The position numbers and the translations under genes are program-made. This document shows, piece by piece, positions 8,544 through 56,796 of a stretch of 56,796 bases of DNA (position 1 is the first letter of the stretch; the number at the start of each line of letters is the position of its first letter). This DNA is from a virus. Its lineage: Duplodnaviria > Caudoviricetes. The stretch covers positions 1 through 56,796 of the IMG/VR virus record IMGVR_UViG_3300022934_000023; one strand, given 5' to 3'. The notes below the pieces were generated by a model, which saw nothing but the letters and a program-made list of their open reading frames with translations, did no database searches and had not been told where the DNA came from.

Positions 8544-8550
8544 TTTATTA

Positions 8551-8799
8551 ATGTCTAGGACTGACGAAGAAAAAGCAAACGATTACGCTGCCATGGGTGA
8601 CAGTGTTATGATGATCAATGCGATCATCGACGGCACTATAAATGCAGATCGTTCTTTAGAGGATCGTAAAGAGAGAGTCCGACGTAACGTCGATCATCTC
8701 TCTGCAATGGTAGCACTTACAGACTGGGGAGACGAGGACATGACCGCCGTAAACGCAGCTATAACAGCCGGTCAAACGTACAGAGGAAGCAGCGAGTAA
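8551..8799 (+). CDS. Putative tail-fibre assembly protein
   Basis: ATG 8551 directly after fibre gene; RNVDHL motif. Confidence 0.6.
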   Translation: MSRTDEEKANDYAAMGDSVMMINAIIDGTINADRSLEDRKERVRRNVDHLSAMVALTDWGDEDMTAVNAAITAGQTYRGSSE

Positions 8800-8801
8800 T
8801 C

Positions 8802-9851
8802 ATGTTTTTTGGTGCAGGTCCATTTGCAACCGCAGCGTTCTCATCGCTGTTCGCCGCCATCCAACAGGCGACTGCATCTGTATCCGGTTCTGCGTCTGCG
8901 ACGGCTACTCCAAGCACTGTTAACCTTGCATCTGCATCCGTATCAGGTTCGGGTTCTGTAAGTGCAACAGCACAGACTATCGCAACTGCAGGTGCCTCTG
9001 TAACTGCAAGCGGAACTTCTACAGCAACAGGTCGCGGACTCCTAGACGGCGACGTTCTGATAGGCGGCTCGGCTACTGTATCGACTCCTGAAGCAAGGCT
9101 AATTGCAGCCGCATCTGCTAGTGTTGCAGGATCGGCATCTACAACTGGCGCAGTATCATCGAGGCACGTAGGTGCTGCGTCTGTCTCCGGATCGGCAACT
9201 GTCTCGGCTGATGCAGCCACAATCCTGAATGTTGCTGCAGTCAGCATCTCTGGAAGCGCCTCTGCATCTGCCAGCCCGAAGGCACGAACACTAGCAGTAG
9301 GCAGCGTAAGCGGCAGTGCGACCACTGCAGGAACTGCACAGGCTGTTCTAGTAGGCGTTGCATCAGTACAGGGTGCAGCCACAGTCTCTGGAACAGCAGG
9401 AGCCTTGCTCGACGGAGAAGCAACAGTAACTGGCTCTGCATCTGTAGCAGCATCGCCGACTGTGTTTGCTACTGTATCCGCCACTGTCTCCGCATCCGGA
9501 AGCGTGGCTGGTTCGCCGAAGGTAGTTGCACAAGGAGTTTTCTCTGTCTCCGGTACGGCAACTACAGCGGGTGCCGCACAGACTATTGGCAGGGGCGCGG
9601 CATCCGTAGCGGGCACCACAACTGTAATTGCAGTTGGCTTCCGGTCCTTCCGCTTTGACGCAACCCTCTACGAACGAGATCGGGTTGCCTTCGTCGCCCA
9701 AGAACCCGCGCGAGAGGTCGCAGTCGGCAAGCCGACACAGCACGTTCTCTATGTAGTGCAGGACACGCAGCGTGTCGTACTTATCCCTGAAGATAAACCA
9801 CGAACGGTATCCATACCACAAGCCGTTCAAAGACTAGCAAAGGTAGCGTAA
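8802..9851 (+). CDS. Ala/Ser-rich repetitive structural protein
   Basis: MFFG..PFAT..FS N-terminus; about 19-aa ASVSGSAT repeats. Confidence 0.7.
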   Translation: MFFGAGPFATAAFSSLFAAIQQATASVSGSASATATPSTVNLASASVSGSGSVSATAQTIATAGASVTASGTSTATGRGLLDGDVLIGGSATVSTPEARLIAAASASVAGSASTTGAVSSRHVGAASVSGSATVSADAATILNVAAVSISGSASASASPKARTLAVGSVSGSATTAGTAQAVLVGVASVQGAATVSGTAGALLDGEATVTGSASVAASPTVFATVSATVSASGSVAGSPKVVAQGVFSVSGTATTAGAAQTIGRGAASVAGTTTVIAVGFRSFRFDATLYERDRVAFVAQEPAREVAVGKPTQHVLYVVQDTQRVVLIPEDKPRTVSIPQAVQRLAKVA

Positions 9852-32303: not shown

Positions 32304-32332
32304 ATATTACAGATCAACTTCTTCCAAGTCAA
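32304..32332 (-). promoter_or_regulatory. sigma70-type promoter for SSB-like gene and downstream genes
   Basis: TTGACT-17 bp-TAATAT in the end of the polymerase gene. Confidence 0.65.
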
Positions 32333-33842
32333 GCCAGTTTTTTCCGATTTTTATTTCGATGCCAACTGGCATGTTGTAAGCAATGCCGTATCTGCGAATG
32401 GTTTCAAAGGGTAACGAGAGCATGGCATGTTTCATCATGTCTATGCAAATATTTTTTTCGTCCGGATGCACGTCCATCACGATGGAGTCGTGAACCGTGT
32501 TGCAAATCACGCTCTGGATTCCGGCAGAGTCAATGACCCGCTGCAGCGACACCAGAGCCAGAGGCAACAGGTCAGCCGTAGCAAAGCCTTGGACCGGATA
32601 GTTACAGATGGCGGTGCGGTTAGTTGCTGTACCCCACTCTGTCCACTTGCATCCGGGGAACATGTACTCCCGGCCCGATGGTAGGGTAACTTTCTTGTAG
32701 CGTACCGCATCGCGTTGCAACTTGTCATGCCACTCGGTCACGCCCTCGTACTTTTCCTTGAAGGCACGGTAGTACCGCTTCTGATCCTCTGTGCCAGTGG
32801 TGCCACCGTACAGCGGCTTGAATGTGTGGGCCTTAGCCTGTTGCCGTGTGCAGCCAATGACGCTGGCTGTGTAGCTGTGTACATCTGTGCCAGCCTTCAC
32901 GTCGGCGTAGACCTGACCGTCTTTTGCAAGAAAGCCAGCTACACGAAACTCTAGCTGCGAGTAATCCCCCTCCATGATGAGGCCACCCTCGAAGCGGCTC
33001 TCGACCACCTTCCGTATAGCGAAGGTATTTCCACGTGGCATATTCTGAAAGTTAGGATTGCGGCTCGAAAGGCGACCCGTCGCCGTAACACACTGCATGA
33101 ATTCTGGATGGATGAAGCCGTGGTCATCCACGTTGTTTTCCATGCCTTCAACAAAAGTGTTGATGTACGTCTTGAGGGCGTTGTATCGCGTGTATGCCGA
33201 AACAAATTCACGTGCGTCTCCCTGTAGTTCGTCTAGTCTTTCTTCCAGTGTAACCTTGTCTGCGCGGAAGCCAGCGGCAGCAGTGTCCCACGTGTTGCGT
33301 GGCACCAGCTTGAATCCCGCCACTTGCCCAGTAGGCACGTAAAGGACGCCAGAGCCGCCGCAGGGCTTACATACACGTACTGCCTTACCCGGGGTGCCAT
33401 CTTTGCGTAAGGCGCGTGTACGGCCCTCTCCGGAGCATTTGGGGCATTGCTGACCTTTTGTCTTGTATACGACATCCGTCATGCGGCGTACGGTGCCACG
33501 GAATTCCTTCTCTGACATGCGTACCCGCTGCTTGGGTTTCATGGTTGATCCACGCATCTCGTGACCGAGGTTGAACGTACGCGCCCACTCCTTCTTGTCG
33601 TGGACTTTACGTGAGTAAAGCAACACGCTGCGGTCGTCGGGGCTGGACAGGTTGATGGGCGTGTCACCCATCGCATCTCGTGCGAGTTGCATGAGTCGAG
33701 TCTCTAACTCTTGCATCTCTTCCTCGTACTGCTTGCGAATGTCTGCAAGCGTGTCGAGGTTGATCCGGAGTCCGTTACGCTCAATCTGCGAGAGCGTGTT
33801 GGTCATCTCCAGTGACAGTTTCAGTGTCGGTACGAGGCTCAT
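32307..33842 (-). CDS. polA: Family A DNA polymerase, polymerase part with DnaJ-type zinc finger
   Basis: TATGRLSS..PN.QN, DYSQLE.R, R..AK..TF..LYG, NYPVQG, VHDS; CPKCSGEG and CKPCGGSG. Confidence 0.93.
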   Translation of the reverse strand: MSLVPTLKLSLEMTNTLSQIERNGLRINLDTLADIRKQYEEEMQELETRLMQLARDAMGDTPINLSSPDDRSVLLYSRKVHDKKEWARTFNLGHEMRGSTMKPKQRVRMSEKEFRGTVRRMTDVVYKTKGQQCPKCSGEGRTRALRKDGTPGKAVRVCKPCGGSGVLYVPTGQVAGFKLVPRNTWDTAAAGFRADKVTLEERLDELQGDAREFVSAYTRYNALKTYINTFVEGMENNVDDHGFIHPEFMQCVTATGRLSSRNPNFQNMPRGNTFAIRKVVESRFEGGLIMEGDYSQLEFRVAGFLAKDGQVYADVKAGTDVHSYTASVIGCTRQQAKAHTFKPLYGGTTGTEDQKRYYRAFKEKYEGVTEWHDKLQRDAVRYKKVTLPSGREYMFPGCKWTEWGTATNRTAICNYPVQGFATADLLPLALVSLQRVIDSAGIQSVICNTVHDSIVMDVHPDEKNICIDMMKHAMLSLPFETIRRYGIAYNMPVGIEIKIGKNWLDLEEVDL

Positions 33843-34383
33843 TGAACATCTCCTCAAAGGTTACGCCATAGGCGTCTAGTTGTTTCAGTGCGATCTCTTC
33901 TGTGGCTAGTACGTCCGCACGACCGTACTCCTCAATTATCTCCCACGGTATATCGTAGAACGTCTTGCCGTCCTTGAGATACGGCTCCACAAGGTCTTTC
34001 TCCTTGCGGGTAACGTCATACTTTTCTGTAAGAGCAGCAAGTCCAAGAGGCCAACGCCTCGCTCGGGCCAGAATATATTCCGCAACCATCGTGTCATAGA
34101 TATGTCCCTCGTATGTAAAGCCGCACTCACGTATCCAAGTCAAGTCGAACTTGATGTTGTGGCCGACAAGTACGTCGGCGTAGTTCAGTGCGCGTTGGAA
34201 ATTGTCGAACGCATTTGGGCTAGGTGGCTCGGTTGAGTGATAGTAGCAGTCGTAGTCCACACCGCTGACTAGCCACTTGTAGCCGATAGAGACCAGCCGG
34301 TTGCCAAAGTATGGCAGGGGCGAGTAGCCGCCGCCACGCTTCTCCGTGTGGGTTGTCTCCACGTCAAACGTCAGTACGTTCAT
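33781..34383 (-). CDS. 3'-5' proofreading exonuclease domain as separate ORF
   Basis: ExoI DVET, ExoII HN.KFD, DTM, ExoIII Y...D. Confidence 0.88.
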   Translation of the reverse strand: MNVLTFDVETTHTEKRGGGYSPLPYFGNRLVSIGYKWLVSGVDYDCYYHSTEPPSPNAFDNFQRALNYADVLVGHNIKFDLTWIRECGFTYEGHIYDTMVAEYILARARRWPLGLAALTEKYDVTRKEKDLVEPYLKDGKTFYDIPWEIIEEYGRADVLATEEIALKQLDAYGVTFEEMFNEPRTDTETVTGDDQHALAD

Positions 34384-34681: not shown

Positions 34682-35901
34682 CAGTAATACACCCCCTTCT
34701 CTACGTCGATCTGTGCATTAATCATGCCGTGCCAACCATTCAGCTTATTCTTCGACACACAAACATGACGAACCGTGTTCTCTACCTCACTTGATCCAGT
34801 CTTGCCGATGCCGATGATGATGTCGGCCTCGCCAGCCTTACCAGTACGCGAGTTGTCCAGCATGGAGTAGTCAATAAATTGACGGTCGTGTGCGTCAAAG
34901 TTTGCCTGACTGACTGCCCAGACCAGCAGCTTGTTGCGCTTGGCAATCTCTCGTGCGTAGACGTAGGTCTCCTTGAGACGCTCGTCACCACGGTTGAACT
35001 CGCCCTTGATGCGGAACTTGTCTAGCTGATCCATGAACATGATGTCAGGCTTGTTCAGCTTGGCATACTCGTCAGCCTCTTCGACAGACGTACCCACCGA
35101 GTCCATGACTGTGAGGTAGGGTGCGATCTCGTCACGATACTTAGCCGCGAGGGTTGCACGACTCTCACGCATCTCCTGCTGGGTCAACTCAAAGTATGAC
35201 TGAATAATCCGCAGCTTGATGCGATCTGCTGGCTCCTCGTTGGCCCAGTACACAACCTTAAGTCCCTGCCGGATGTATGACGCAGCAAGGAAGCAGCAGA
35301 AAGTTGTCTTACCAACTTCCGGTCGAGCAAACAGAATGCCAAGATTACCCCGATCCAAGCCGGGAACTTCTTCCTGCAACAGACTGAATTCAAACGGAAA
35401 GTCAGGATCGCCGGTTACTTCGTCGAGCAGTTCTTCCAAGTCGGTGTCCACTTCTGTGTATGTAGTTTTGTCAGACATGCGTCCGTCATCGACGGCATCG
35501 ATCAGGCGTTGCAACTCCCCGAACTCTTCGCTTTCGCCTGTGAAGATTTCAATGGCCTTCTCACCGATCTGACGCGCACGGTCACGCAACCAAAAGTTAC
35601 GCACCATGTCGATGTGCATGTCCGTGTTGTCGGGGTTGCCAGCCTCAAGCGTGACGATGATGTCGTGTACCTTCTCACGCGCACTGTCGGGCATGGCAGG
35701 GTTGCGATCATCGAACAGCGCAGCCAACTCCGATGATGTCATCGTGTTGCCATACTTTGTGTGGCTGTAGATCAGGGTGTCAAAGATATCGCGCATCTCT
35801 CGCGTGAACATTTCACGGTCCAGCGTGTTCTTTACCTGAGAGAAAAACTCTGCATCCAAACAGAAGCCAAGTATCTTTGTGTCAAGCGATACGTTCGTCA
35901 A
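34681..35901 (-). CDS. SF4 (DnaB/T7 gp4-like) replicative helicase
   Basis: Walker A ARPEVGKT, MFMD, SQ, EAD..IGIG, KNK. Confidence 0.9.
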   Translation of the reverse strand: MTNVSLDTKILGFCLDAEFFSQVKNTLDREMFTREMRDIFDTLIYSHTKYGNTMTSSELAALFDDRNPAMPDSAREKVHDIIVTLEAGNPDNTDMHIDMVRNFWLRDRARQIGEKAIEIFTGESEEFGELQRLIDAVDDGRMSDKTTYTEVDTDLEELLDEVTGDPDFPFEFSLLQEEVPGLDRGNLGILFARPEVGKTTFCCFLAASYIRQGLKVVYWANEEPADRIKLRIIQSYFELTQQEMRESRATLAAKYRDEIAPYLTVMDSVGTSVEEADEYAKLNKPDIMFMDQLDKFRIKGEFNRGDERLKETYVYAREIAKRNKLLVWAVSQANFDAHDRQFIDYSMLDNSRTGKAGEADIIIGIGKTGSSEVENTVRHVCVSKNKLNGWHGMINAQIDVEKGVYY

Positions 35902-36691
35902 TGAATTCGTCCCTTTCGTCGTCCATCATGTTCTTCAAGTCGGTAGGCAGTACAGCCAAACTAGTTGGCACAAGAAAATGCAAACGACGAACAATGTCAA
36001 GTGCTTTGTCAGTCGCATCCTTGTCCAGTGCAACGTACACCCTGCTGTATTTCGATAGCCTATTAGCGTGTTCGTTGAGCAGGTTCGTACCCAGCAGAGC
36101 CATGCCTGTAACTTTATTGCTTACAGAACATGCACTCGCGCAATCTTCTACCACAAACGCAATGTCAGAGGTTCCGCAGACGAATGGCACTTGGGACTTA
36201 CCGTATCGATACCACTTAGGCTTAGTATCACGCAAGGCTCGTCCGACTGCATCAACTGTCTTTCGTCCATCTCGCACCATGTACACGACACGGTGCCGCT
36301 TGAAGTCGTACCGAATGTCAGCACGACCAGACAGATAAGAGTCATAGGCATTGACCTTTCTCACATACAGTTCTGCATCCGTGTTGCGTGACAGACTGAC
36401 GAACGTGGACGGCTCCTCAAAGCCAACACTCACAGCCGGTGCCGGTACAGATTTTGTCAGCTTATCTTTTGTCAACGCTTGACTGGCGAACTCTTTTGTC
36501 AGCTTGATACCGGTACGCCCACGCACGTTGCAGTCAGCATGAAAGCAGTACCAGAGGCGTTGCATACCATCGTCCGTTACGCTAAACGTGTTTGACTTAG
36601 CGCAGACAGGACAGTCTGCTCGGTAACTTGTCAGTGGTTGTATGTCAAGTGACTCAACGTACCCTGTCAGCCACGGCGGTGATTTTGTCAT
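35882..36691 (-). CDS. DNA primase (zinc-binding plus TOPRIM)
   Basis: CPVC...CFHADC, KW.RY, VVED..SA, LGT, ALD.DA. Confidence 0.88.
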   Translation of the reverse strand: MTKSPPWLTGYVESLDIQPLTSYRADCPVCAKSNTFSVTDDGMQRLWYCFHADCNVRGRTGIKLTKEFASQALTKDKLTKSVPAPAVSVGFEEPSTFVSLSRNTDAELYVRKVNAYDSYLSGRADIRYDFKRHRVVYMVRDGRKTVDAVGRALRDTKPKWYRYGKSQVPFVCGTSDIAFVVEDCASACSVSNKVTGMALLGTNLLNEHANRLSKYSRVYVALDKDATDKALDIVRRLHFLVPTSLAVLPTDLKNMMDDERDEFIDERIA

Positions 36692-36740
36692 CGCTTGTCC
36701 TTTTCGTGATTTTTGTCACCATAACCCATATCGATATCGC

Positions 36741-36769
36741 TTGACAAGCAGAATTTTGTCAGCCACTAT
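36741..36769 (+). promoter_or_regulatory. Putative early promoter overlapped by TGACAA-N8-TTGTCA inverted repeat
   Basis: TTGACA-17 bp-CACTAT at the divergence point. Confidence 0.5.
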
Positions 36770-36798
36770 CTATATACCCCCCCTTTAGGGAGACCCCC

Positions 36799-36951
36799 AT
36801 GAGGAAGAAGATAGATAAAATTAATCCGATAGCCAAAACCCTACGGGATAGTCTGTACAGAAAGAGAATTGTACAGGATAAACGAAAGGGTGAACAGGAT
36901 AAACGCGCGAAGAAGGAAATCAGGGATGCCAAGACCACCCAAGATTCGTGA
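36799..36951 (+). CDS. 50-aa basic ArfA-like peptide (not on ORF track)
   Basis: MRKKIDKINPIAKTLRDSLYRKRIVQDKRKG...; AGGGAG RBS. Confidence 0.6.
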   Translation: MRKKIDKINPIAKTLRDSLYRKRIVQDKRKGEQDKRAKKEIRDAKTTQDS

Positions 36952-37141
36952 AGACACGAAGACGTACAACCTGTTGATGCCGACAAGACAGTATGATATT
37001 TTGTCAGCCCATTCATCACGAATGACTGAGGCGGGTCTGGAACAGGTTGCTGTAGCTGACCTGATCCGCGAAGCAATCGACGTGTACATCGAAGCATTAG
37101 AGGATGAGGAGTACGAAGGTAATGTCAGCAAGGAAGATTAA
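36926..37141 (+). CDS. Ribbon-helix-helix DNA-binding protein
   Basis: KTYNLLM strand, helix, then VADLIREAIDVYI. Confidence 0.7.
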   Translation: MPRPPKIREDTKTYNLLMPTRQYDILSAHSSRMTEAGLEQVAVADLIREAIDVYIEALEDEEYEGNVSKED

Positions 37142-37397
37142 GGTATTCAAAGATCGCAAGGGCAACGACTTGATGCCCTACGTTTTGTCAAAGGATGGTA
37201 GGCACGAGGTTGTCGCCCCAGTGTCATCCGTGCGGATTGGAGAGACACGCAAAGATTTTGTCAAGTCAAAGGCTTGCGTGGACTACGCACGATGGGTTGC
37301 ACTCTTTGTCGGACGAAGTGAAGCCGAATGCAAAAAGTGGCTTGACAAGTATCAGCGGGTGGTGCTAAGACTGTGTACACCGTACGAAGTCAGGTAG
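37122..37397 (+). CDS. Hypothetical early protein
   Basis: MSARKIKVF...; overlaps upstream gene. Confidence 0.6.
   Translation: MSARKIKVFKDRKGNDLMPYVLSKDGRHEVVAPVSSVRIGETRKDFVKSKACVDYARWVALFVGRSEAECKKWLDKYQRVVLRLCTPYEVR
37342..37371 (+). promoter_or_regulatory. Putative promoter of candidate sRNA
   Basis: TTGACA-18 bp-TAAGAC with TG extension; predicted start near hairpin base 37378. Confidence 0.5.
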
Positions 37398-37491
37398 TCC
37401 TTTCCCGGCTCCGTACGGTGCCTCCTTTAGAATAGTGTGTTGTTCGAAAACTTGAGCAGGGCTGGTAGAGATACTGGCCCTGTTCTTTTTT
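37378..37491 (+). ncRNA. Candidate anti-Shine-Dalgarno sRNA
   Basis: Promoter, hairpin with GUCCUUU loop, unpaired CCUCCUUU, intrinsic terminator. Confidence 0.55.
37454..37491 (+). terminator. Rho-independent terminator
   Basis: GAGCAGGGCTGGTA-GAGA-TACTGGCCCTGTTC then T6. Confidence 0.85.
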
Positions 37492-37559
37492 GTTTGACAG
37501 GGTTGATCGTTATCTGTATGGGTAATGTATTGCAACGCCAACACAGAGGAGATTGGCAC

Positions 37560-37808
37560 ATGGAAATCACACTGACTGACAATCAACGCCGGGACTTTCT
37601 CCGGGCACACAACGAACTCCGCAATATCATTTCTACGATACAGGAGTGCAACGATCTTTGGGTATCCGACTTGGCAAAGCTGGAGCGGCTGCAACATCTG
37701 CTGCACTACACGCTCAAGTTTACACCGCCGGTTGACGACGAGGGCAACAGGATGTGGTATCGTGACTTTGTGTTTGAGGAAGAGGTGCCGAGCGATGCGG
37801 ACGATTGA
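37560..37808 (+). CDS. Hypothetical early protein
   Basis: GAGGAG RBS before ATG 37560; TTGACA at 37494. Confidence 0.7.
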   Translation: MEITLTDNQRRDFLRAHNELRNIISTIQECNDLWVSDLAKLERLQHLLHYTLKFTPPVDDEGNRMWYRDFVFEEEVPSDADD

Positions 37809-38139
37809 GAACCACGTCGAGTGGTGCCACTGCTGGCAATGCGGTGGCTACGGCAAAGTCGAGGGCGAGGAGGCAGTGCCGGACCCTATCCGGGGCGGTG
37901 ATCTTGTCAGCAAGGTGTATTACTGTACCAAGTGTCACGGTGGCGGTGAAGTGTATCGCGCCAAGCTAACACAGACAACAGTGATCCGTGCCTTCTTGAC
38001 ACAGGCAAAGAACGCTCTGGAAGACATCGACCTCATTGACAGCGACCTCGACTTGGCATATGGCAGGATTGATGACGTGATCGGTGACATTGAAAACTAC
38101 GAAAGAAAGGTAGGGACACGCGATGGGCAAAGTAAGTGA
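37795..38139 (+). CDS. DnaJ-type zinc-finger protein
   Basis: CWQCGGYG and CTKCHGGG. Confidence 0.7.
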   Translation: MRTIENHVEWCHCWQCGGYGKVEGEEAVPDPIRGGDLVSKVYYCTKCHGGGEVYRAKLTQTTVIRAFLTQAKNALEDIDLIDSDLDLAYGRIDDVIGDIENYERKVGTRDGQSK

Positions 38140-38293
38140 CTGGCTAATCGAAATGGAAGAGGACGCCTCGTACATGACGCGCCAACAATTCATGGACAAG
38201 CACGGCGAGACGGTGGCCGAGGTTTACGACGAACTGCAACTCAAGTGGCAGTACGATCACGCCGAACCGGGAGAGCCTGACGATGTGGGTTGA
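38123..38293 (+). CDS. 56-aa acidic early protein (not on ORF track)
   Basis: MGKVSDWLIEMEEDAS...; overlaps both neighbours. Confidence 0.65.
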   Translation: MGKVSDWLIEMEEDASYMTRQQFMDKHGETVAEVYDELQLKWQYDHAEPGEPDDVG

Positions 38294-38465
38294 CCCGGAA
38301 GACGATCCGCGTCTGGAAAATGTCAGTGAAATATTGTCAGCCCTAATCACTGAACGCGACCGGCTGGAGTGGGAGGGGGATATTGTCAGTCCAAATATTG
38401 TCAGCCGGATACGCCGTCTACGAAATCTTGTCAGCGAGGGAATACTGTGGGAACCAAAATTCTGA
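38283..38465 (+). CDS. 60-aa hypothetical protein containing five motif copies
   Basis: GGAG upstream; operon packing. Confidence 0.55.
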   Translation: MWVDPEDDPRLENVSEILSALITERDRLEWEGDIVSPNIVSRIRRLRNLVSEGILWEPKF

Positions 38466-38653
38466 GACGAAAAATTGTCAGCCCAAATATTGTCAGCCAA
38501 AAGCACACAACATTATCGGCGAACAATCCCTGTGGGACATGCGGACAGCCAGCCATGACGAGAGAGGGCGACCGGCTGCGCTGTCCGTCCTGCTGGCTAA
38601 AAGAACAGGCAAAAAAAATAACGCCTATTGACCGGGGCGGTTATTATCCGTAA
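38447..38653 (+). CDS. Putative zinc-ribbon protein (start uncertain)
   Basis: CGTC...CPSC; GTG after GAGGG. Confidence 0.45.
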   Translation: MGTKILRRKIVSPNIVSQKHTTLSANNPCGTCGQPAMTREGDRLRCPSCWLKEQAKKITPIDRGGYYP

Positions 38654-38656
38654 TCT
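38628..38656 (+). promoter_or_regulatory. sigma70-type promoter
   Basis: TTGACC-17 bp-TAATCT with upstream A tract. Confidence 0.65.
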
Positions 38657-38694
38657 TGCCGGACGTTTAGGACATACGAGAAGGACACAACGAC

Positions 38695-38949
38695 ATGAAA
38701 AAGCGAATACACATAAATCAGCACGTCATCCGGGCGAATGCCAAGAACGGCACAAACGACCCGGCAATCACTGTCAAAACATACCGTAACAATTATTACG
38801 CGCACCGGGTGGAAATCGACGGCGCGTCGTCTGTTGTTTACTCACCGGACAAACCGTTAAATTGTGGTGCGCGGGTATGGGTGGAAACTGACGAACCGGT
38901 AACGCTGCACGGCTTGGATAATGATAATTTTACACTGGTGATAGCATGA
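38695..38949 (+). CDS. Conserved phage hypothetical protein
   Basis: IH.NQH.I..N...PL.CGARVW.ET. Confidence 0.75.
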   Translation: MKKRIHINQHVIRANAKNGTNDPAITVKTYRNNYYAHRVEIDGASSVVYSPDKPLNCGARVWVETDEPVTLHGLDNDNFTLVIA

Positions 38950-39560
38950 AACAGGCTACGCTGATCGATCACGAAAAGATGATCTATAATATTTGCAGCG
39001 TCTATCGTGACGCCGACGAAACGCAACACGCGGAGGGCTTGTTGTGGTACGATAACGCACAAAAGGCGGCGCACGATATCGCGGTAAAATATGGCATCGC
39101 TGTTTACATTGTGGTGGCGGTGATCGCCGCGCTATCCCCAAATAACAAATGGTCTCGAAACGTGACAAACGCGGCGACGCTAATTGATGCTTTCCTGCGC
39201 GGCGACGGCATCGACTCGGTGAAAGTCTCGACCTACAACAAGATGAAGGCGAAGGCTTGGGACATCTTGGCGGCGCGTCCGGACTATGACGGCGCAAAAA
39301 AGATGCTCAAGGGCCAGAAGATCACGTCCTTTTTTATGGACATCATGGGCGAATTCAACGTCACCATTGATGGCCACGCGCGAAACATTGCCTACAATGA
39401 GCGGGTTGGATTGACCGACGACCGGACAAACATCGGCGTCCGTGAATACCGCGCTTTGCAAGCCGCTTACGAAGAGGCGGCGCGACGTGTTGGCCTCATG
39501 CCGTACCAGCTACAGGCGATCACTTGGCGCGTTTGGCGCGACCGGCACGGGATTACATGA
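38946..39560 (+). CDS. Early protein with possible HhH-glycosylase-like fold
   Basis: WY..A, ALSP...W..N, VTIDGHA, LQAITW. Confidence 0.6.
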   Translation: MKQATLIDHEKMIYNICSVYRDADETQHAEGLLWYDNAQKAAHDIAVKYGIAVYIVVAVIAALSPNNKWSRNVTNAATLIDAFLRGDGIDSVKVSTYNKMKAKAWDILAARPDYDGAKKMLKGQKITSFFMDIMGEFNVTIDGHARNIAYNERVGLTDDRTNIGVREYRALQAAYEEAARRVGLMPYQLQAITWRVWRDRHGIT

Positions 39561-39742
39561 GCGAAATTTTGTCAGCGCCATGCTTCACAAATATTGTCAG
39601 TGCCATGCTTCACTGTTTGGGGATCGGTTGGGGGTTTCCTGCGCCATTGTTCGGGGGCGGGACTGTCGGGCCGGTCGGATCGGCGGCGAGACGACGGGGC
39701 CAGCCGATCACCGACGCCAGCCAACTTTTTTTGGCTCAACTC

Positions 39743-39771
39743 TTCACAGGCTGCAAATCCTGTGCCATGAT
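39743..39771 (+). promoter_or_regulatory. sigma70-type promoter
   Basis: TTCACA-17 bp-CATGAT with TG extension. Confidence 0.55.
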
Positions 39772-39822
39772 TCACCCACCGGTCACGAGATGACCGGCAA
39801 CCAGCAACGAAAGGACATTATC

Positions 39823-40866
39823 ATGCTGGACATAATCGAACCTACCGCACGTTTTATCAGCCGGGGCGGCGGCACCTATGACCACACGCACACTGATCTG
39901 GCCGACGTGTCGATCTATTCGGACCTTGCCAAGATTCGGCGGGTGCCGATCGATGCTTTGACTAGCTGGGCCGACCGGACGCCTGACGGTGACGTGATCC
40001 GGGAGATTGTCGAGCCAACCCGGCTGGACGGTTTCTCGGCACTTGTTAACAAAGCGACCGGCGACCTGTTGCAGACCCGGCCTGTTGCCGACACCTACAA
40101 GCTAGTCAGCCATGACGAATTGTTCAGCCTACAGGCTAAAATGGTGGCGGAATCCGGCTTGCCGATCTCGAACCTTGAGATCATTGATCGGCTCTACGAT
40201 GGCGGACTCCGGGCGCACCGGACCATCATGTTCCATGACCTCGATGCTGTTGTTGGCAATTCTGACGACCGGGTTGTTTGCCGCATGGATGTTTTCAACT
40301 CTGTCGACATGTCTTGGTCATTCCAGATTTTTTCTGGTGCCTACCGTGACCTGTGCCGGAATACTTTGGTGTTCGGCGGCGAGAAGGCCTATCACCAGAA
40401 GCGCAAGCACACTAAGAACCTTAGCCCTGCCGCGCTTATCGGCAAGGCAACGATGGGGCTGGACTTCTGGCAGAACAACCGGGACGAAATGGACCGGATG
40501 CGCCAGACGCCACTGACCCGCGATCAATTCGGGTTGATCCTTGCGAATACGATCTGCGCCAAGCCGGGAGCGCCTAAGATTGAGGGCGTGTCGATCCCGG
40601 TCAACGAGCGGTTGCTTGGCTATCTGTTGCACCGGTACGACGAAGAGGTGGCAGAACTGGGCCGGACTCAATGGGCGGCCTATAACGCACTGACCCACTG
40701 GTCAACGCACACTGACACCGAATGGACCACCGACGAGGGGAAGACGTACAAGACCGGCAAGAAGGACGCCCGGACGCACCTTGTGCAACGCAAGCGATCC
40801 GACGATGTCCGGACCGTGCTGGATTCCCTTGTCTGGCAAGCTATGGGAGAGCCAGCTTTTGCATGA
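39823..40866 (+). CDS. DUF932-like protein
   Basis: Y.LV.H, NS.D.S, R..C.N, KHT, W.AYNALT.W.TH; GAAAGGAC RBS. Confidence 0.7.
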   Translation: MLDIIEPTARFISRGGGTYDHTHTDLADVSIYSDLAKIRRVPIDALTSWADRTPDGDVIREIVEPTRLDGFSALVNKATGDLLQTRPVADTYKLVSHDELFSLQAKMVAESGLPISNLEIIDRLYDGGLRAHRTIMFHDLDAVVGNSDDRVVCRMDVFNSVDMSWSFQIFSGAYRDLCRNTLVFGGEKAYHQKRKHTKNLSPAALIGKATMGLDFWQNNRDEMDRMRQTPLTRDQFGLILANTICAKPGAPKIEGVSIPVNERLLGYLLHRYDEEVAELGRTQWAAYNALTHWSTHTDTEWTTDEGKTYKTGKKDARTHLVQRKRSDDVRTVLDSLVWQAMGEPAFA

Positions 40867-40936
40867 CTTGATTGCATCACTATTCCGGCTTTGCTGGATA
40901 ATCCTGCTGGTGATTATCATTGCCAGCGTCATCTAA
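40859..40936 (+). CDS. 25-aa hydrophobic peptide (not on ORF track)
   Basis: TTG after GGGAG; MHDLIASLFRLCWIILLVIIIASVI. Confidence 0.45.
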   Translation: MHDLIASLFRLCWIILLVIIIASVI

Positions 40937-40952
40937 ACGAAAGGACAAAACG

Positions 40953-41432
40953 ATGACAACGAACAACACAACGACCACAACATTCCCGCCTCACCTGATC
41001 GAAGGCTTTAAGAAGCTGGCCGACGATTTCGAGGCACACATCCGGGCCGACGAGCGGTCACGCATTGCCGCCAAGTTTCGGGCTGAATTCCCCGAGAGGC
41101 CAGTTGCCAAGCCGGGGTTGTTCCCGATCACCGGCTTGCATGGTGAGCCGCTTAACGAAGTCGGCCAGCAGTCGAAGACCTACGACCCGGCGGCACCGTT
41201 TGATTATGCCGGACAGCGTCTGAATGAGAGCCACAGGCGCATGATTGCTTGGCTTTCATCCGGTACGTTTTTTGCGGTTCCGACACTGGCGGGGCATCTC
41301 AACGTCAAGAAGCAGACCGTCTATCAGTATCTGGACGCGATCAAGAGGGCTGGTTACAAGTTGGAAATCCGTAGCACCGGGAACAACAAGGGCGGCTATC
41401 GCAACATTTACCGGCTTGCCAAGACCGGCTAG
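40953..41432 (+). CDS. Winged helix-turn-helix protein
   Basis: LAGHLNVKKQTVYQYL..I...GY plus wing ending YRL. Confidence 0.75.
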   Translation: MTTNNTTTTTFPPHLIEGFKKLADDFEAHIRADERSRIAAKFRAEFPERPVAKPGLFPITGLHGEPLNEVGQQSKTYDPAAPFDYAGQRLNESHRRMIAWLSSGTFFAVPTLAGHLNVKKQTVYQYLDAIKRAGYKLEIRSTGNNKGGYRNIYRLAKTG

Positions 41433-41495
41433 TTTTGCAACAACATGGGGGCGGGGCGCGGTTGCCCCGTCTCAACCACACGAAAGGACGAAACG

Positions 41496-41717
41496 ATGAA
41501 AACATCTATCAAAAGCGAACTGACCACCTCTGAAGCTAAAGAGGTTTTTGCGATCACCGAGCGGGAAATCCGCACGATCCGCATAATGATCACCGGCATT
41601 GAAAATCAGATATCGGCCCTCGATGAATTCATGGATGCGATCGGGTTGCAAAAATGGATGGGCAGCAGCCCGCGTTCCGTTGCCGCGTGTGACTTCAAGA
41701 TCACGAAAGACGATTGA
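41496..41717 (+). CDS. Hypothetical early protein
   Basis: GAAAGGAC RBS; terminator follows. Confidence 0.7.
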   Translation: MKTSIKSELTTSEAKEVFAITEREIRTIRIMITGIENQISALDEFMDAIGLQKWMGSSPRSVAACDFKITKDD

Positions 41718-41729
41718 AACAGGAACAAC

Positions 41730-41755
41730 GCCCCGGCCTTTGTGCCGGGGTTTTT
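41730..41755 (+). terminator. Rho-independent terminator
   Basis: GCCCCGGC-CTTTGT-GCCGGGGT then T run. Confidence 0.85.
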
Positions 41756-41778
41756 GCTTAGGGAAGGGAAAAGGAACG

Positions 41779-42513
41779 ATGGAAATCATCACCAGAAAAG
41801 AAGCGAAGGCGGTGGGGTTGCAAAGGTACTTCACCGGGAAGCCGTGCAAACACGGCCATGTTTCCGAGCGTTTGACGGCTGGTGGCACGTGTCAGGAATG
41901 TTTAGATCGCAGATATTGGGGCGATAGAGAGCGCCCACAAAAGCATTCTGTCCCGGCGCATCTGCGGCAGTATTTGATGACTAGGAAAGAGGCACGGGCG
42001 TCAGGGCTTACAACCTATTTTACGGGACAGCCATGTAAAGAGGGGCATATTGCAGCCCGTTGGACTAGCAGCGCGCATTGTGTAATTTGCGCGAGAGCAA
42101 GGTGGGATCTTGCGTTTTGCTGTAACAAAAAGGCCCCCGTTCGCAGGACTGAAGAATATCGGTCAGAACATCAGAGGAAATATCGCGCGGTTAATGCCGA
42201 AAAAATACGTGCGCGCGTCAGGGAATATCAGATCGAAAATAAAGAAAGGTACATGGAGTATCAGACGGCATATCAGGCGGCGAGGCGTGTGTTGCAACGA
42301 AAGGCTCAACCACCGTGGGTAGATGTTGCAGAATTGAGAGCGATCTATAGAGCTATGAGGCGCAAGAACAGAAAAGCCGGAAAGATCGCATATCACGTCG
42401 ATCACATTGTGCCGCTGCAGGGCCAGAATGTTTGCGGCTTGCACGTGCCGTGGAATTTGCAAGTTATCTCAGCGCGTGAAAATCAACAAAAGGGCAACCG
42501 CATCGAAGCGTAA
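41779..42513 (+). CDS. HNH (homing-type) endonuclease
   Basis: HVDHIVPL..CGLHVPWNLQVI...N..K.N; two TRKEA..G...YFTG.PC..GH...R..C..C modules. Confidence 0.88.
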   Translation: MEIITRKEAKAVGLQRYFTGKPCKHGHVSERLTAGGTCQECLDRRYWGDRERPQKHSVPAHLRQYLMTRKEARASGLTTYFTGQPCKEGHIAARWTSSAHCVICARARWDLAFCCNKKAPVRRTEEYRSEHQRKYRAVNAEKIRARVREYQIENKERYMEYQTAYQAARRVLQRKAQPPWVDVAELRAIYRAMRRKNRKAGKIAYHVDHIVPLQGQNVCGLHVPWNLQVISARENQQKGNRIEA

Positions 42514-43868: not shown

Positions 43869-45528
43869 ACCTAAAAAAGACCCCAATGCGCCAAAGGCCA
43901 CATATAACCTCTCTACGAGGGAACGTGCGCGACGTGCGGCGACGAAACGTGTTAATGCCGCGAAACGTCGTGCAGTCAAGTCAAGCAAAGCCGCAGAGGA
44001 CAAACGACGCTATGCCCGAAAGCTGGAACAAACTACAACAAAGGTTGAAAAGGCTCTGGTTGGCAACGAGTCTGCCACAATCGATCTTGGGGATTTGGAT
44101 GTACTGCCAGATGCAGTCAGTGACCTTGTTAGCGAAAGCGAGATTGTCTTTCAGCCGAATGATGGCCCTCAGACAGACTTTCTCAGTGCGGGTGAGCGAG
44201 ACGTACTTTACGGCGGTGCTGCCGGTGGTGGAAAGAGCTTTGCACTTCTTGCTGATCCGCTACGTTACTGCCACAATCCTAATCATCGTGGTCTTCTTCT
44301 CCGTCGTACACTGGATGAACTCACCGAACTAATCGACAAGTCACGTCAACTGTACCCCAAAGCCTTTCCGGGTGCAAAGTTCCGGGAGTCAAAAACCACG
44401 TGGGTGTTTCCATCCGGAGCAACAATATGGTTTACGTACCTTGACAGAGATAAGGACGTAACCCGCTTTCAGGGTCAGGCGTTCAACTGGATAGGTATCG
44501 ATGAGATAACGCAATACCCCACACCGTACGTTTGGGATTACCTTCGTTCTCGTCTTCGCTCAACAGACCCTGAACTCCAACAACACCTCTATATGCGTTG
44601 CACAGCGAACCCCGGAGGCATTGGGGGCTGGTGGGTCAAAAAAACGTACATTGACGGCCTAGAACCCAACAAAGCCTTTCCCGCATTTGACATCGAGACA
44701 CAAAAGCCCTTTGTGTGGCCAGCAGGTCACGAGAAGGCAGGTCAACCGCTGTTCCTTCGCAAGTTTGTACCGGCGCGGCTGACCGACAATCCCTACCTGA
44801 TGGCAGACGGTCAGTACGAGGCGATGCTCAGGTCGCTCCCAGAAGTCGAGCGAAAGCGGCTTCTCGAAGGGGATTGGGATGTGGCGGAGGGAGCAGCCTT
44901 CCCAGAATTTTCAAGGAGTCGGCACGTTGTCGAACATTTCGAGTTACCTACCAATTGGCCCCGTATACGAGCGGCAGACTACGGCTATGCGAGTCCGTCG
45001 TGCGTTCTGTGGGGGGCTATTGACTGGGATAACAATATCTGGGTTTATCGCGAACTATATGCTAAACACTTGACAGCGGAAGAGTTAGCTGATAAAATAA
45101 TGGAAGCAGAACAACTCGACCCAACACCGCACTACACCGTGTTGGATTCGTCGTGTTGGAACAAGACAGGATTCGGTCCGTCGATTGCCGAAACAATGAT
45201 GAGAGCCGGAGTCCGCTGGACACCTTCTGATCGTAATCGCATACAGGGCAAGATGGAAGTTCATCGCCGTCTTGCTAATGATCCCTACACAGAAGAACCT
45301 CGATTACGTATCTTCTCCAGTTGCCAAAACATAATTAAGCAACTGGCTGGCATTCCGCTTTCTAAGTCCAACAGTGAAGATGTAGATACTAAGGCAGAGG
45401 ATCACGCATACGACGCTCTGCGATACATGGTAATGACACGCATGAGCGGATACACATCAATACACAAACAACTTGGTGCAATTAAGAGTCAGGTGTACCA
45501 AGTCCAAGATGAGACGTTCGGATACTGA
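43828..45528 (+). CDS. terL: Terminase large subunit
   Basis: YGGAAGGGKS, IGIDE, TANPGG, DYG, DH.YDALRY. Confidence 0.95.
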   Translation: MDDQQQSAPKKRGRPKKDPNAPKATYNLSTRERARRAATKRVNAAKRRAVKSSKAAEDKRRYARKLEQTTTKVEKALVGNESATIDLGDLDVLPDAVSDLVSESEIVFQPNDGPQTDFLSAGERDVLYGGAAGGGKSFALLADPLRYCHNPNHRGLLLRRTLDELTELIDKSRQLYPKAFPGAKFRESKTTWVFPSGATIWFTYLDRDKDVTRFQGQAFNWIGIDEITQYPTPYVWDYLRSRLRSTDPELQQHLYMRCTANPGGIGGWWVKKTYIDGLEPNKAFPAFDIETQKPFVWPAGHEKAGQPLFLRKFVPARLTDNPYLMADGQYEAMLRSLPEVERKRLLEGDWDVAEGAAFPEFSRSRHVVEHFELPTNWPRIRAADYGYASPSCVLWGAIDWDNNIWVYRELYAKHLTAEELADKIMEAEQLDPTPHYTVLDSSCWNKTGFGPSIAETMMRAGVRWTPSDRNRIQGKMEVHRRLANDPYTEEPRLRIFSSCQNIIKQLAGIPLSKSNSEDVDTKAEDHAYDALRYMVMTRMSGYTSIHKQLGAIKSQVYQVQDETFGY

Positions 45529-47462
45529 TGGCAAAAAAGACCGTAAAAGATTTATCTATTGAGATAGTAAAAAAGGCAGAGGCGGGTACTCTGACTATCG
45601 GTGAAGCACTGGATTACGTATCTAATCCTAGTGTCCCTATGCCTGAGTCGTACAAGTCAATTAACAAAGAAGGCGTCCACGTTGCCCGTGCCCAGATGAA
45701 TACGGTACGCAACAACATGAAGACGCTTAAAAAGCTGGCTCCTGATGACTTTCCTCTCGGACTAGACACGCCTCTCAAAGATATGCGGAATGCAGAAATC
45801 GTGTTTCTGTTCCGTCGTGATGGTTCTCCTGATCTTTCGAACCGAGCCTATAACTATCAAATCTTCGAAAACATTCTGTTTCACAACCTCGACAAGTATG
45901 GTCTTTCAGCCATCACTGAGGATGTGGGCGACGGCATTAAAGAGTCCATGTATCCGCGCCTTGCGGGTGCAGGTAATCCAATGGGTACGCAGCGTACAGG
46001 TCTTGCTGGCGAACGTCCTATGGAGGGACTGCTTGAGAAGGAAAAGCTGGATGCAATATACGCGGATGCTCTTCCTGAAGTCGAAGCAAAGTACAACGCT
46101 AATACACGCCGACTCGTAGAATACCATCGCAACACCTTCCAGCGTCCAGAACAACTAGTAGGTTTGAAGGTTACAGATGTCATCGTCGATGGCGACAACA
46201 TAACCGTCAAGGGCAAGAAGACAACCAAGACAGATCACAAGGGTCGTCCAGAGTTGACCTTTAAGGCAAGTAGCCCTATGGGCCGCTTGCTGACAGAAGC
46301 AAAGAATTCCAGCACCTCTGATCTTCTCTTTGATACTGACATCGACACGTTCAATGATGCGTTTAATGATACGGTCGGAAAACGACTTGCCGAATACAAA
46401 GATGTGCTTCCACAGGCGGACGTTAAAGTCACTCTGCCCAATGGTAAAGTAGAAATTCAGCAACGCGCAGTTACAACTCCGTCTGCTATTCGTTCGATTG
46501 TCCCACACTACCTGCATAAGCAACTCAAAGTCAACAAAGACGTTGTTCAGGGCTTGATGGGACACATCAATGCCGATACGATTGACCGTAACTATATTGG
46601 CATCTCAGCAAATAAAGACCTCCCTCTGGTTCTGGAAAATCCTGAAAACTTTGCCCAGAGTGGATTCGGTGGCGGAACTAACGCCCAGCATTTTGATCGC
46701 AGTCTTCTCAGTGAAGAACAGCTTGAGTTAATTGCAGGCGAACTTACTGAAGCCGAGACACAAGAGGCAAAGGCACGTACTGCTGTTGCTGTTCGTGTAC
46801 AGGCAACAGAAGCTCTTCAAACACAAAAAGCGGTTATAGAACGTGCTGCACAGATGCCAGAAGAAATTGCTGCTGCAACCACTGTCGCAGAAGGCGAAGC
46901 GCAAATAGCGCAAGTGCAGTCTGAGGCTCGTTCTAGCGCACGAAAAGAGTCTGCTGCAAACAGAGGTAAAGCTCACCGCAACGCATTGCGCGAAATGCTA
47001 GACCCACGTAATCTCAAGTCTTCGGCGCTGGCTGGGCTGGCTACTGCAGGTACTCTGCTGTCAAAGGCACCCAATCCCGTGTTTGATTTAGTAGGCGGTC
47101 TTGTAGATAAAGAGAGCTACGACATCGCAGAACAAAAGGGTCGTACCTTTGTGTCCGAGTTGACAGGTCAGCCGGAAGATAGCTTTCTGTCACGAATAGG
47201 CGGGGGAGCAGGCGTAGTAGGTGAGATGCTTACCGGTGCTGTTGCTGACCCCGAGGGTGCAGCCCGTACAAGCGCCCAGATGATGTCGCTGCTGGGCAAG
47301 ACCCCGATTCTTAATTTGACGAGGGGCATTCCTGATGCGGCCCCGCCACAGACAGGTACACTTGAGGCAGAAGACGCTGCGTCTAATGTCCAAGACGTAG
47401 AAAACCGCGCACGTAGCGGTCAAACCACGTCCCTGCTGGACGTACAACCACAAACTTTATAG
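45528..47462 (+). CDS. Tyrosine recombinase domain protein with long extensions
   Basis: T.QRPEQL..L...D, K-rich hairpin, SAIRS, LMGH, RNY. Confidence 0.75.
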   Translation: MAKKTVKDLSIEIVKKAEAGTLTIGEALDYVSNPSVPMPESYKSINKEGVHVARAQMNTVRNNMKTLKKLAPDDFPLGLDTPLKDMRNAEIVFLFRRDGSPDLSNRAYNYQIFENILFHNLDKYGLSAITEDVGDGIKESMYPRLAGAGNPMGTQRTGLAGERPMEGLLEKEKLDAIYADALPEVEAKYNANTRRLVEYHRNTFQRPEQLVGLKVTDVIVDGDNITVKGKKTTKTDHKGRPELTFKASSPMGRLLTEAKNSSTSDLLFDTDIDTFNDAFNDTVGKRLAEYKDVLPQADVKVTLPNGKVEIQQRAVTTPSAIRSIVPHYLHKQLKVNKDVVQGLMGHINADTIDRNYIGISANKDLPLVLENPENFAQSGFGGGTNAQHFDRSLLSEEQLELIAGELTEAETQEAKARTAVAVRVQATEALQTQKAVIERAAQMPEEIAAATTVAEGEAQIAQVQSEARSSARKESAANRGKAHRNALREMLDPRNLKSSALAGLATAGTLLSKAPNPVFDLVGGLVDKESYDIAEQKGRTFVSELTGQPEDSFLSRIGGGAGVVGEMLTGAVADPEGAARTSAQMMSLLGKTPILNLTRGIPDAAPPQTGTLEAEDAASNVQDVENRARSGQTTSLLDVQPQTL

Positions 47463-55955: not shown

Positions 55956-56144
55956 ATGATGCACGTCTTTCTCCTGTTTGTTTTCTTGGGAACGGGAGAA
56001 GACAAGCGAAGAGTCAGCAACGACATGTATTTTCGCGACCTAAATGAATGCGTGTGGTACGCACAAAAACTCCACAAACAAGGAAACGAGGTTACGGCGT
56101 ACTGCCTACCCAAACTGGTCGATAAAGATACGAAGGTATACTGA
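55956..56144 (+). CDS. Small hypothetical protein
   Basis: F.....C..YA.......AYC.P pattern; in operon. Confidence 0.65.
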   Translation: MMHVFLLFVFLGTGEDKRRVSNDMYFRDLNECVWYAQKLHKQGNEVTAYCLPKLVDKDTKVY

Positions 56145-56145
56145 G

Positions 56146-56577
56146 ATGCTTGCTGAACTCGCTGCTGCCAACGCCGCCTTTGCTGTAATCAAAACTGCTG
56201 TTCAGAATGGAAAAGACATTGCTTCCGCAGGTCATGCTATTGCAGAGTTCGTTGGCGCGAAGGAAGCCTTACAGAAGAAATCCCAAAAAAAGGGCAATAG
56301 TTCGGACCTTGAAGAGTTTATGGCCCTCGAACAGATTCGAGAACAAGAAGAGCAACTCAAGACCATAATGATTTATGCGGGTCGTCCGGGTTTGTGGGGT
56401 GACTGGCAAAAGTTTCAAGCCAAAGCGCGGGTCGCCCGGAGAGAAGCGGAAGAGGCGGCAATTCGTAAGCGCAAGCAGATGCTCGACATCGCCATTGTTA
56501 CCTTCTTCTTTGTCTTGGGTTTGGTTATTTTGGGCTGTATCGTTGCCCTCGCTCTCCACTCACAGGGACGCCTCTAG
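56146..56577 (+). CDS. Variant copy of 136-567 protein
   Basis: Same length, highly similar protein. Confidence 0.8.
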   Translation: MLAELAAANAAFAVIKTAVQNGKDIASAGHAIAEFVGAKEALQKKSQKKGNSSDLEEFMALEQIREQEEQLKTIMIYAGRPGLWGDWQKFQAKARVARREAEEAAIRKRKQMLDIAIVTFFFVLGLVILGCIVALALHSQGRL

Positions 56578-56636
56578 TTTTTTTCTTGTAAACTCTGGGT
56601 AACTGTGCTATAATAGGGTTATTTACGGAGAGTTGC

Positions 56637-56796
56637 ATGGACCGCATGGTAATCGAAGCCCTAAAACACAAGTACGAAGCCCAAAAGGCAAGTGTGCTAG
56701 AAACATTCAAAACCTCCGACATTATGGAGGACATCGACGACGCACTGAACACGTGGCACAAAGCAGACCGTCAGTTGATGACCATAAACCATATAG
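56637..56796 (+). CDS. Variant copy of 627-848 protein, cut by window end
   Basis: MDRMVIEALKHKYE... Confidence 0.7.
   Translation, partial: MDRMVIEALKHKYEAQKASVLETFKTSDIMEDIDDALNTWHKADRQLMTINHI

Follow-up and report, generated by a model that had tools for sequence, protein, structure and literature searches.

The window analysed here is the whole of IMG/VR virus record IMGVR_UViG_3300022934_000023 (56,796 bp), an uncultured marine phage of the HMO-2011 type of podoviruses, and its early region carries an oriented array of TGTCAG sites laid over a run of small genes. We read these sites as the type A form of a lineage-wide set of promoter-associated cis-regulatory boxes in the early region of this HMO-2011-type branch, served by a putative reader, an account that we hold tentatively and at a little under even confidence.

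Between positions 36000 and 39613 TGTCAG occurs 20 times on the plus strand and once on the minus strand (37576), each copy lying where the initial annotation had placed it. The other 53,183 bases hold 16 plus-strand and 29 minus-strand copies, and the window as a whole counts 66, where shuffled sequences would give 38.7. The earlier estimate of about one chance copy agrees with 2000 first-order Markov simulations of 3.6 kb, which gave a mean of 0.89 and a maximum of 6. The full type A word, AAATWTTGTCAGC, is longer than TGTCAG, and the extended pattern has 38 plus-strand hits, 35 of them within 35466–39594 and 3 elsewhere, with 8 scattered over the minus strand. Further details in the annotation also hold: at 16 of the 20 sites at least three of the four preceding bases are A or T, variants of the form TTTTGTCA(A/T/C) are present at 36470, 36686, 36714, 37186 and 37259, and seven sites crowd into 38321–38496 at spacings of 14, 49, 15, 30, 47 and 15 nt. 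The claim that the word is read differently from gene to gene, as LTK in the primase and as ILS, IVS and NVS in early open reading frames (ORFs), is likewise correct; across frames the box word is translated as LTK, ILS, IVS, NVS, LVS and MSA. That the word is read in all three frames, and that relatives replace it in situ with another word, supports the earlier proposal that selection acts on the nucleic acid and not on the protein, and the view that the oriented array forms one system is borne out.

The primase-internal copies (36007, 36163, 36316, 36629 and 36665, within 36007–36670 on the plus strand) are of uncertain membership. They stand at conserved codon places, four homologous places being common to type B relatives, and sites 36007, 36316, 36497 and 36629 (36665 partly) coincide with the codons TDK, LT and PDT/RAD of the primase, at which CTGACA is found on the primase sense strand in many relatives, type A and type B alike. 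Coding thus explains this part of the array at least in part, the part is not type-specific, and sites 36007, 36316, 36497 and 36629 are not good members of the box system.

Comparison with relatives (160 loci from two scans, 148 after dereplication) separates two box types. Typing of the early region placed 32 loci in type A, with TTGTCAG enriched, and 65 in type B, with TGACAAA enriched on the same strand, the other 51 staying untyped mostly through lack of cover. The type B word, TGACAAAC, occupies the same syntenic places as the type A word: near the early promoter and the start of the RHH-like gene; within that gene, where type A phages encode DILSA and type B phages DKLAT; as a cluster where a small gene meets a Zn-ribbon gene; and as one or two tandem units downstream of a variable gene slot. 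That slot, between the cluster and the tandem element, is filled by DUF7178 or by a gene of either 227 or 205 aa. In type B a site is often the complete module TGACAAA-N5-G-N-ACGCTAAA, the tandem units of the window read TTGTCAG(C/T)GCCATGCTTCAC, and there is a third flavour, GGCAAA. The 8-mers TTTGTCAG (type A) and CTGACAAA (type B) are exact reverse complements of one another, with differing flanks. Both types form in-frame tandem arrays, of 15-nt units in type A and 24-nt units in type B, including exact repeats in loci L082 (four times FVSHN) and L153 (twice 24 nt), and the arm of the Zn-ribbon protein that they encode consists of N(I/F)VS repeats of five codons in type A and of eight-codon repeats in type B. 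Type A spacings are mostly 15–16 nt, with none at 11 nt, and type B GACAAA copies occur 11, 22, 33 and 44 nt apart.

Within a genome the two places match in type: cluster and downstream element are of the same type in 59 of the 60 loci holding both (19 A/A and 40 B/B), the remaining locus being undecided and none discordant. They can nevertheless replace one another between very close relatives. Over 8.7 kb, L060 (A) and L074 (B) share 96% identity, and L051 and L063 (both A) are collinear with L081 (B) at 86–95% identity except in two segments, one a ~220-bp cassette that takes in the small gene's centre and the N-terminus of the Zn-ribbon gene, the other comprising the variable gene and the element downstream of it. 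In L069 (A) and L087 (B) the 228-aa variable gene is the same, yet both box sites differ. Judged from these alignments, what sets near-isogenic A and B phages apart is an exchange of the cassettes that bear the boxes, and this holds even where the intervening gene is common to both.

The strongest hint of function comes from the downstream element. In the window it consists of two 25-nt units, AAATTTTGTCAGCGCCATGCTTCAC and AAATATTGTCAGTGCCATGCTTCAC (39564–39616, plus strand), followed directly by the conserved G-rich sequence TTGGGGATC...TTCGGGGGCGGG..., which belongs to a conserved structured small RNA or leader at 39619–39732 on the plus strand. The first helix of this RNA pairs 39622–39629 with 39669–39676, and its 3′ part is a hairpin at about 39679–39708 around the conserved loop GGCGAG(A/T)CG..GGGGC, ending in a T-run (39726–39732). 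Over the 16 pairs of the two helices, 93.3% of cells are paired in 38 sequences, against 82.0% in shuffles and 13–52% when the helices are slid, and compensatory changes are seen at 12 of the 16 pairs. Since many of the pairs are G-U, only a plus-strand RNA fits. The region matched no Rfam family at the gathering score or at E ≤ 1, and a tRNA search made for its annotation found none; with such strong covariation support the ~115-nt RNA is a candidate new small RNA or leader.

The boxes stand in fixed register with this RNA. Counted from the RNA's first G, the T of the box falls at −24 or −23 in 11 of 12 unique type A upstream sequences, the proximal box of the window being at −24, with the −10-like hexamer CACTGT at 39611–39616. 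The type B layout, across 32 unique sequences, is TGACAA, 11–12 nt, then a TATAAA/TAAAAT/TAATAT-like hexamer whose end is 3–9 nt before the RNA. A scan of IMG/VR with a 14-mer of the element returned at least 119 stretches, and among the matches listed the RNA context was present in only three new loci; the rest are therefore taken as chance matches and are uninformative on other phage groups.

These features suggest a working unit of ~24 nt comprising the box, a conserved stretch of 11–12 nt and a −10-like hexamer. One or two such modules directly upstream of the structured RNA would act as its promoter, the box near −25 to −30 replacing the −35 hexamer, and the further copies over the early genes, single or in in-frame arrays, would be extra promoters or extra reader-binding sites. 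The reader is pictured as a factor that recognises a specific sequence and cooperates with host RNA polymerase, much as at a T4 MotA box or a response-regulator box. Scans of ORFs against PHROGs and Pfam revealed no recognisable phage RNA polymerase, the large ORFs of unknown function having no Pfam match at E ≤ 1, so the host polymerase must be redirected or used directly. A putative sigma-70-like early promoter, P1 (TTGACA, 17 nt, CACTAT; 36741–36769, plus strand), was located by eye; it was missed by a consensus promoter scan. The box TTTTGTCAGCC (36754–36764) lies inside its spacer, TGACAA and TTGTCA there forming an inverted pair, and the homologue of P1 in relatives is the promoter TTGACAAG. 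Sigma-54, ECF, RpoH and T7-like promoters were rejected by eye on spacing, and alpha-type −10 words seen in CRP-1 and P12053L proved to be coding sequence for AKA and were set aside.

The promoter-linked reading accounts for the orientation of the boxes, their restriction to the early operon, the register with the RNA and the −10 hexamers; from it we infer transcription starts, protein binding and activation at the boxes. The dense arrays and the missing reader are left unaccounted for, and several observations weigh against the reading. Cluster boxes lying 14–15 nt apart cannot each be a promoter, and the last of them would start transcripts inside the Zn-ribbon gene. The type A −10 is weak, being CACTGT 11 nt after TTGTCA in the window and, by eye, keeping A2 and T6 in 7 of 10 cases, and the other candidate hexamer, CATGCT, follows the box by only 4 nt. 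Cover of 35.0–41.7 kb by contigs from four metatranscriptome runs is scattered and shows neither starts nor strands. To these is added the outcome of the search for a reader. No type-specific reader was present among ten conserved early proteins, each having A/B pairs that are 97–100% identical (the comparison covered the early region); no gene cluster built from 9,493 ORFs combined presence in the majority of type A loci with absence from type B; and no MotA or AsiA family appeared among the PHROGs and Pfam hits of 25 early and replication ORFs.

The proteins that the initial annotation had put forward as binders fare no better. Versions of the RHH protein (36926) are near-identical in type A and type B phages, and the HTH protein (40953) has no type-discriminating column, one A/B pair being 92% identical. 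The 'recombinase' (45528) is 6 kb away, and its match falls below the Pfam cut-off (24.0 versus 27.1 bits). Only the centre of the small protein and the N-terminal arm of the Zn-ribbon protein differ by type, which they do because the boxes encode them. The small protein is modelled as a helical hairpin with a mean predicted local distance difference test (pLDDT) score of 90 and has no PDB fold match at E ≤ 0.001, a further point on the negative side; the Zn-ribbon model is poor (pLDDT 62.5), and the protein atlas offered only unnamed clusters for the structure leads. As no early protein tracks type, the reader would be a host factor, a factor encoded outside the sampled 8–16 kb or a single orientation-tolerant factor.

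Several known systems resemble the boxes in part. The MotA box of T4 is centred near −30; it lies 12 ± 1 bp from the −10 element (PMC2988021). As in the T4 middle promoters, the type B box stands 11–12 nt upstream of a sigma-70-type −10 and would replace the −35 hexamer, the starts here being predicted, and the phage lacks a recognisable polymerase of its own and has many copies in the pre-replicative region, some of them intragenic. Two T4 origins use MotA-type middle promoters. Unlike the MotA/AsiA system, the boxes come in two interchangeable types, conservation extends to the stretch that separates box and −10, and no homologue of either protein was found; unlike middle promoters, there are dense in-frame tandem arrays and the type A −10 is weak. 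The Pho box bound by PhoB (PMC3131613 and PMC4415409) consists of two CTGTCAT repeats with a 4-nt A/T spacer, ~10 nt upstream of the −10, and is comparable in its TGTCA core, its direct repeats and its distance to the −10, as well as in the type B GACAAA spacings. Its 11-nt period is not that of type A, where 15–16 nt dominates (14, 15 and 15 nt in the window, whose spacing is 14–16 nt overall); moreover the words are unlike beyond the core, and the type B box points the other way. PeSL mobile regulatory cassettes of T4-type phages, as far as the excerpts of PMC2839356 and PMC4122927 describe them, are likewise repeated promoter-like cassettes among small early ORFs that coincide with modular swaps; the boxes differ from what is described there in having no stem-loop half, in lying inside coding sequence and in forming two mutually exclusive sequence types.

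Foremost among the alternatives is that the cluster at 38318–38499 is an iteron origin laid over small genes, that the tandem element and G-rich RNA form a transcription-primed origin like T4 oriF/oriG and that the scattered copies are regulatory sites of the same initiator. The lambda origin lies inside gene O, and plasmid iterons are direct-repeat origins. The boxes share with such origins in genes direct repeats over a tolerant coding segment and specificity types exchangeable between close relatives; the A/B types are swapped as cassettes in the way of lambdoid O/ori types. Seven direct repeats fall within 176 bp, tandem 15-nt or 24-nt units recur in relatives, the array adjoins the divergent primase/helicase/polymerase module, and the RNA downstream is G-rich and structured. 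Against this, no 60-nt stretch below 40% G+C exists in 36.3–39.9 kb (minimum 0.40, 36300–39899) and hence no AT-rich unwinding element; no initiator co-varies with type among the early proteins compared; copies are spread over 3 kb, one set being in promoter register with an RNA; relatives such as L153 carry no more than two units and no copy of the small gene; and the repeats recur at multiples of three nucleotides, which looks like in-frame slippage and not helical phasing. For the origin iterons suggested by the initial annotation, the seven tandem direct repeats are present, and the AT-rich stretch and co-varying initiator that would be expected are missing. We regard this as a live rival, possible though unlikely, and on balance the evidence favours promoter-linked boxes; both readings could be combined in a transcription-primed origin like T4 oriF.

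The boxes might instead act in RNA, as cleavage, stability or translation signals of early transcripts comparable to T4 RegB/RegA sites, the tandem element being where processing would release the small RNA's 5′ end. The well-formed boxes downstream of P1 are all on the sense strand of the early operon, one overlaps the start codon at 37122 (as others do the DUF7178 and Zn-ribbon starts in relatives), the distance to the first helix of the RNA is fixed, and the flanks are A/U-rich. Boxes at 36452–36719 are, however, upstream of P1 and antisense to the primase, the near-consensus type B −10 hexamers at fixed distance would be needless for an RNA signal, and a type-specific reader is missing here too; we give this explanation a small chance of being right. 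A comparably small chance attaches to a swappable two-state cis code in which one 8-mer in either orientation (TTTGTCAG in A, CTGACAAA in B), recognised by one putative reader and written in frame over early genes, would mainly fire a G-rich RNA that primes replication, in effect a transcription-activated origin with exchangeable cassettes. If this were true, one of the most abundant marine phage groups would have an origin of exchangeable specificity.

Likeness by descent is a slimmer prospect still. Host-type promoter cassettes could have been duplicated by slippage and come to lie at breakpoints of modular exchange, like PeSL cassettes; concordance would then arise because cluster and tandem element swap together in one 1.2-kb block. 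The A/B breakpoints do fall at box-bearing segments with the variable gene slot between them, exact tandem units occur (in L082 and L153), and foreign copies persist: a stray type A site is kept in type B phage L074, and a full type B element, TGACAAACGCGGCGACGCTAA (39163–39183, plus strand), is kept inside the DUF7178 gene of this type A window, at codons VTNAATL. On the other side, each word with its 11–12-nt tail is conserved across phages whose proteins are only 50–60% identical, which argues for selection by a reader; there is no stem-loop part beside the boxes; and the window's boxes well leftward of that block (36452–37129) are type A as well.

Oriented short repeats are typical of pac and centromere sites, and on this general ground a packaging (terminase small subunit), partition or DNA-entry pause site could be proposed, very improbably, since the terminase genes are 4–7 kb away, no ParA/ParB- or ParR-type family appeared among the hits for 51 ORFs scanned, the RHH protein is not type-linked and the register with the RNA gene would go unexplained; the centromere and recombinase-arm readings offered by the initial annotation find no support, the sole integrase-like ORF being the distant sub-threshold one at 45528, and its injection-stop reading has none either, as no observation puts the array close to an end of the genome. 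That ORF (45528–47462, 644 aa) lies between the large terminase and portal genes, its match is to tyrosine recombinases, and its position is unlike that of the integrase in cultured HMO-2011-type phages, which adjoins the primase.

From left to right, the other boxes begin with three in the primase linker KLTK/ALTK/KLTK, to which they are antisense (36452–36503, plus strand): TTTTGTCAGC at 36452, TTTTGTCAAC at 36467 and TTTTGTCAGC again at 36494, the TGTCAG copy at 36497 being at a codon place common to type B relatives. Two variant boxes follow on the plus strand (36683–36719): the first, TTTTGTCAT, overlaps the start codon of the primase, and the second, TTTTGTCAC, is in the intergenic region between the divergent genes. 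Beyond P1, the gene at 36799–36951 contains two copies of the direct repeat ACAGGATAAACG (36873–36884 and 36894–36905), a place occupied in type B relatives by TGACAAACG boxes immediately before the start of RHH. The RHH gene holds a full type A element, TTTTGTCAGCCCATTCATCAC (36999–37020, plus strand; codons DILSAHSS), and the same codons in type B relatives carry TGACAAGCTGGCAACCTAT. The box AATGTCAGC (37120–37129, plus strand) includes the start codon of gene 37122–37397, and two variant boxes TTTTGTCAA lie at 37183 and 37256 (37183–37264, plus strand). A strong terminator-like hairpin (37454–37495, 14 pairs and then a T-run) separates genes 37122–37397 and 37560–37808; directly after it come TTGACA at 37494 and a possible −10 (region 37454–37530).

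The box CTTGTCAGC (37902–37911, plus strand) is inside the Zn-finger gene 37795–38139. The main cluster (38318–38499, plus strand) has its seven boxes at 38321, 38335, 38384, 38399, 38429, 38476 and 38491 and overprints the small gene at its centre and the Zn-ribbon gene at its N-terminal arm. The former (38283–38465, plus strand) is conserved, encodes 60 aa predicted to fold as a helical hairpin, and has a box-bearing centre that differs by type; the latter (38447–38653, plus strand) likely starts with GTG at 38447, a start picked by eye, and combines a conserved core with the box-encoded arm, predicted to be disordered. The DUF7178 start region (window 38946–38975) is in type B relatives the full element ATGACAAAACAGGCAACGCTA, reading MTKQATL, and in the window has no ACA codon there. 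Between the T-run of the RNA and the DUF932 start at 39823 is a promoter-like site (39743–39771: TTCACA, 17 nt, CATGAT, preceded by TG), kept in relatives as cTTCAAC...TGTGCCATGATTCA.

Assignment of the phage rests on two proteins: the large terminase is 51–58% identical to those of HMO-2011, CRP-2, CRP-13, CRP-603 and HTVC115P, and the primase matches HMO-2011-type phages only, placing the window in an uncultured branch of the HMO-2011-type podoviruses. Megablast of 35800–40800 returned no near-identical cultured phage. The two ends of the window repeat each other (1–766 and 56011–56776, 766 bp at 85% identity), so it probably spans the genome; the repeats, both of which encode a phrog_32327 protein, reflect either circular-assembly wrap-around over a strain-variable gene or two paralogues. 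The replication module lies on the minus strand (26.1–36.7 kb) and encodes ribonucleotide reductase, endonuclease I, a Cas4-like exonuclease, polymerase A, a DnaB-like helicase and the primase (35882–36691). Its DNA polymerase A is split into an exonuclease ORF (33781–34383) and a polymerase ORF (32307–33857) that overlap by 77 nt, the latter with a weak DnaJ-type CXXCXGXG match. Divergent from this module is a plus-strand block of small early genes (36799–42513) with the RHH-like gene (36926), the 60-aa gene (38283), the Zn-ribbon gene, DUF7178 (38946), DUF932 (from 39823) and an HTH_11 gene; terminase and structural genes lie downstream of it.

A comparable TGTCAG or TGACAAA array is absent from the first 7 kb of the cultured HMO-2011-type phages HMO-2011, CRP-13, CRP-1 and HTVC033P, with the exception that AT-rich HTVC033P has TGACAAA 6 times on one strand and 0 on the other. 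HMO-2011 (L173, 1–7000) has one-strand words of its own, TGACCGCAA (4 versus 0), GACATTGA (5 versus 0) and TGACAAGG (4 versus 0). In roseophage SIO1 (L171) 1.3 kb upstream of gp9, a DUF7178 homologue, have no annotated genes (8200–9490), and this stretch contains three to four one-strand copies of TATGTTAC.

HMO-2011-type phages are among the most abundant marine viruses. None of their regulatory signals is known to have been described, and the word 'promoter' is nearly absent from the roseophage and HMO-2011 papers surveyed. The boxes give this group a testable cis-element in two mutually exclusive sequence types, for which the near-isogenic A/B pairs are ready-made natural swap experiments, and add a candidate small RNA. 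They also show how densely DNA signals can be laid over coding sequence, in three frames and as in-frame peptide repeats. Among the known kinds of phage cis-elements the boxes are a new variant, in an abundant and poorly studied group.

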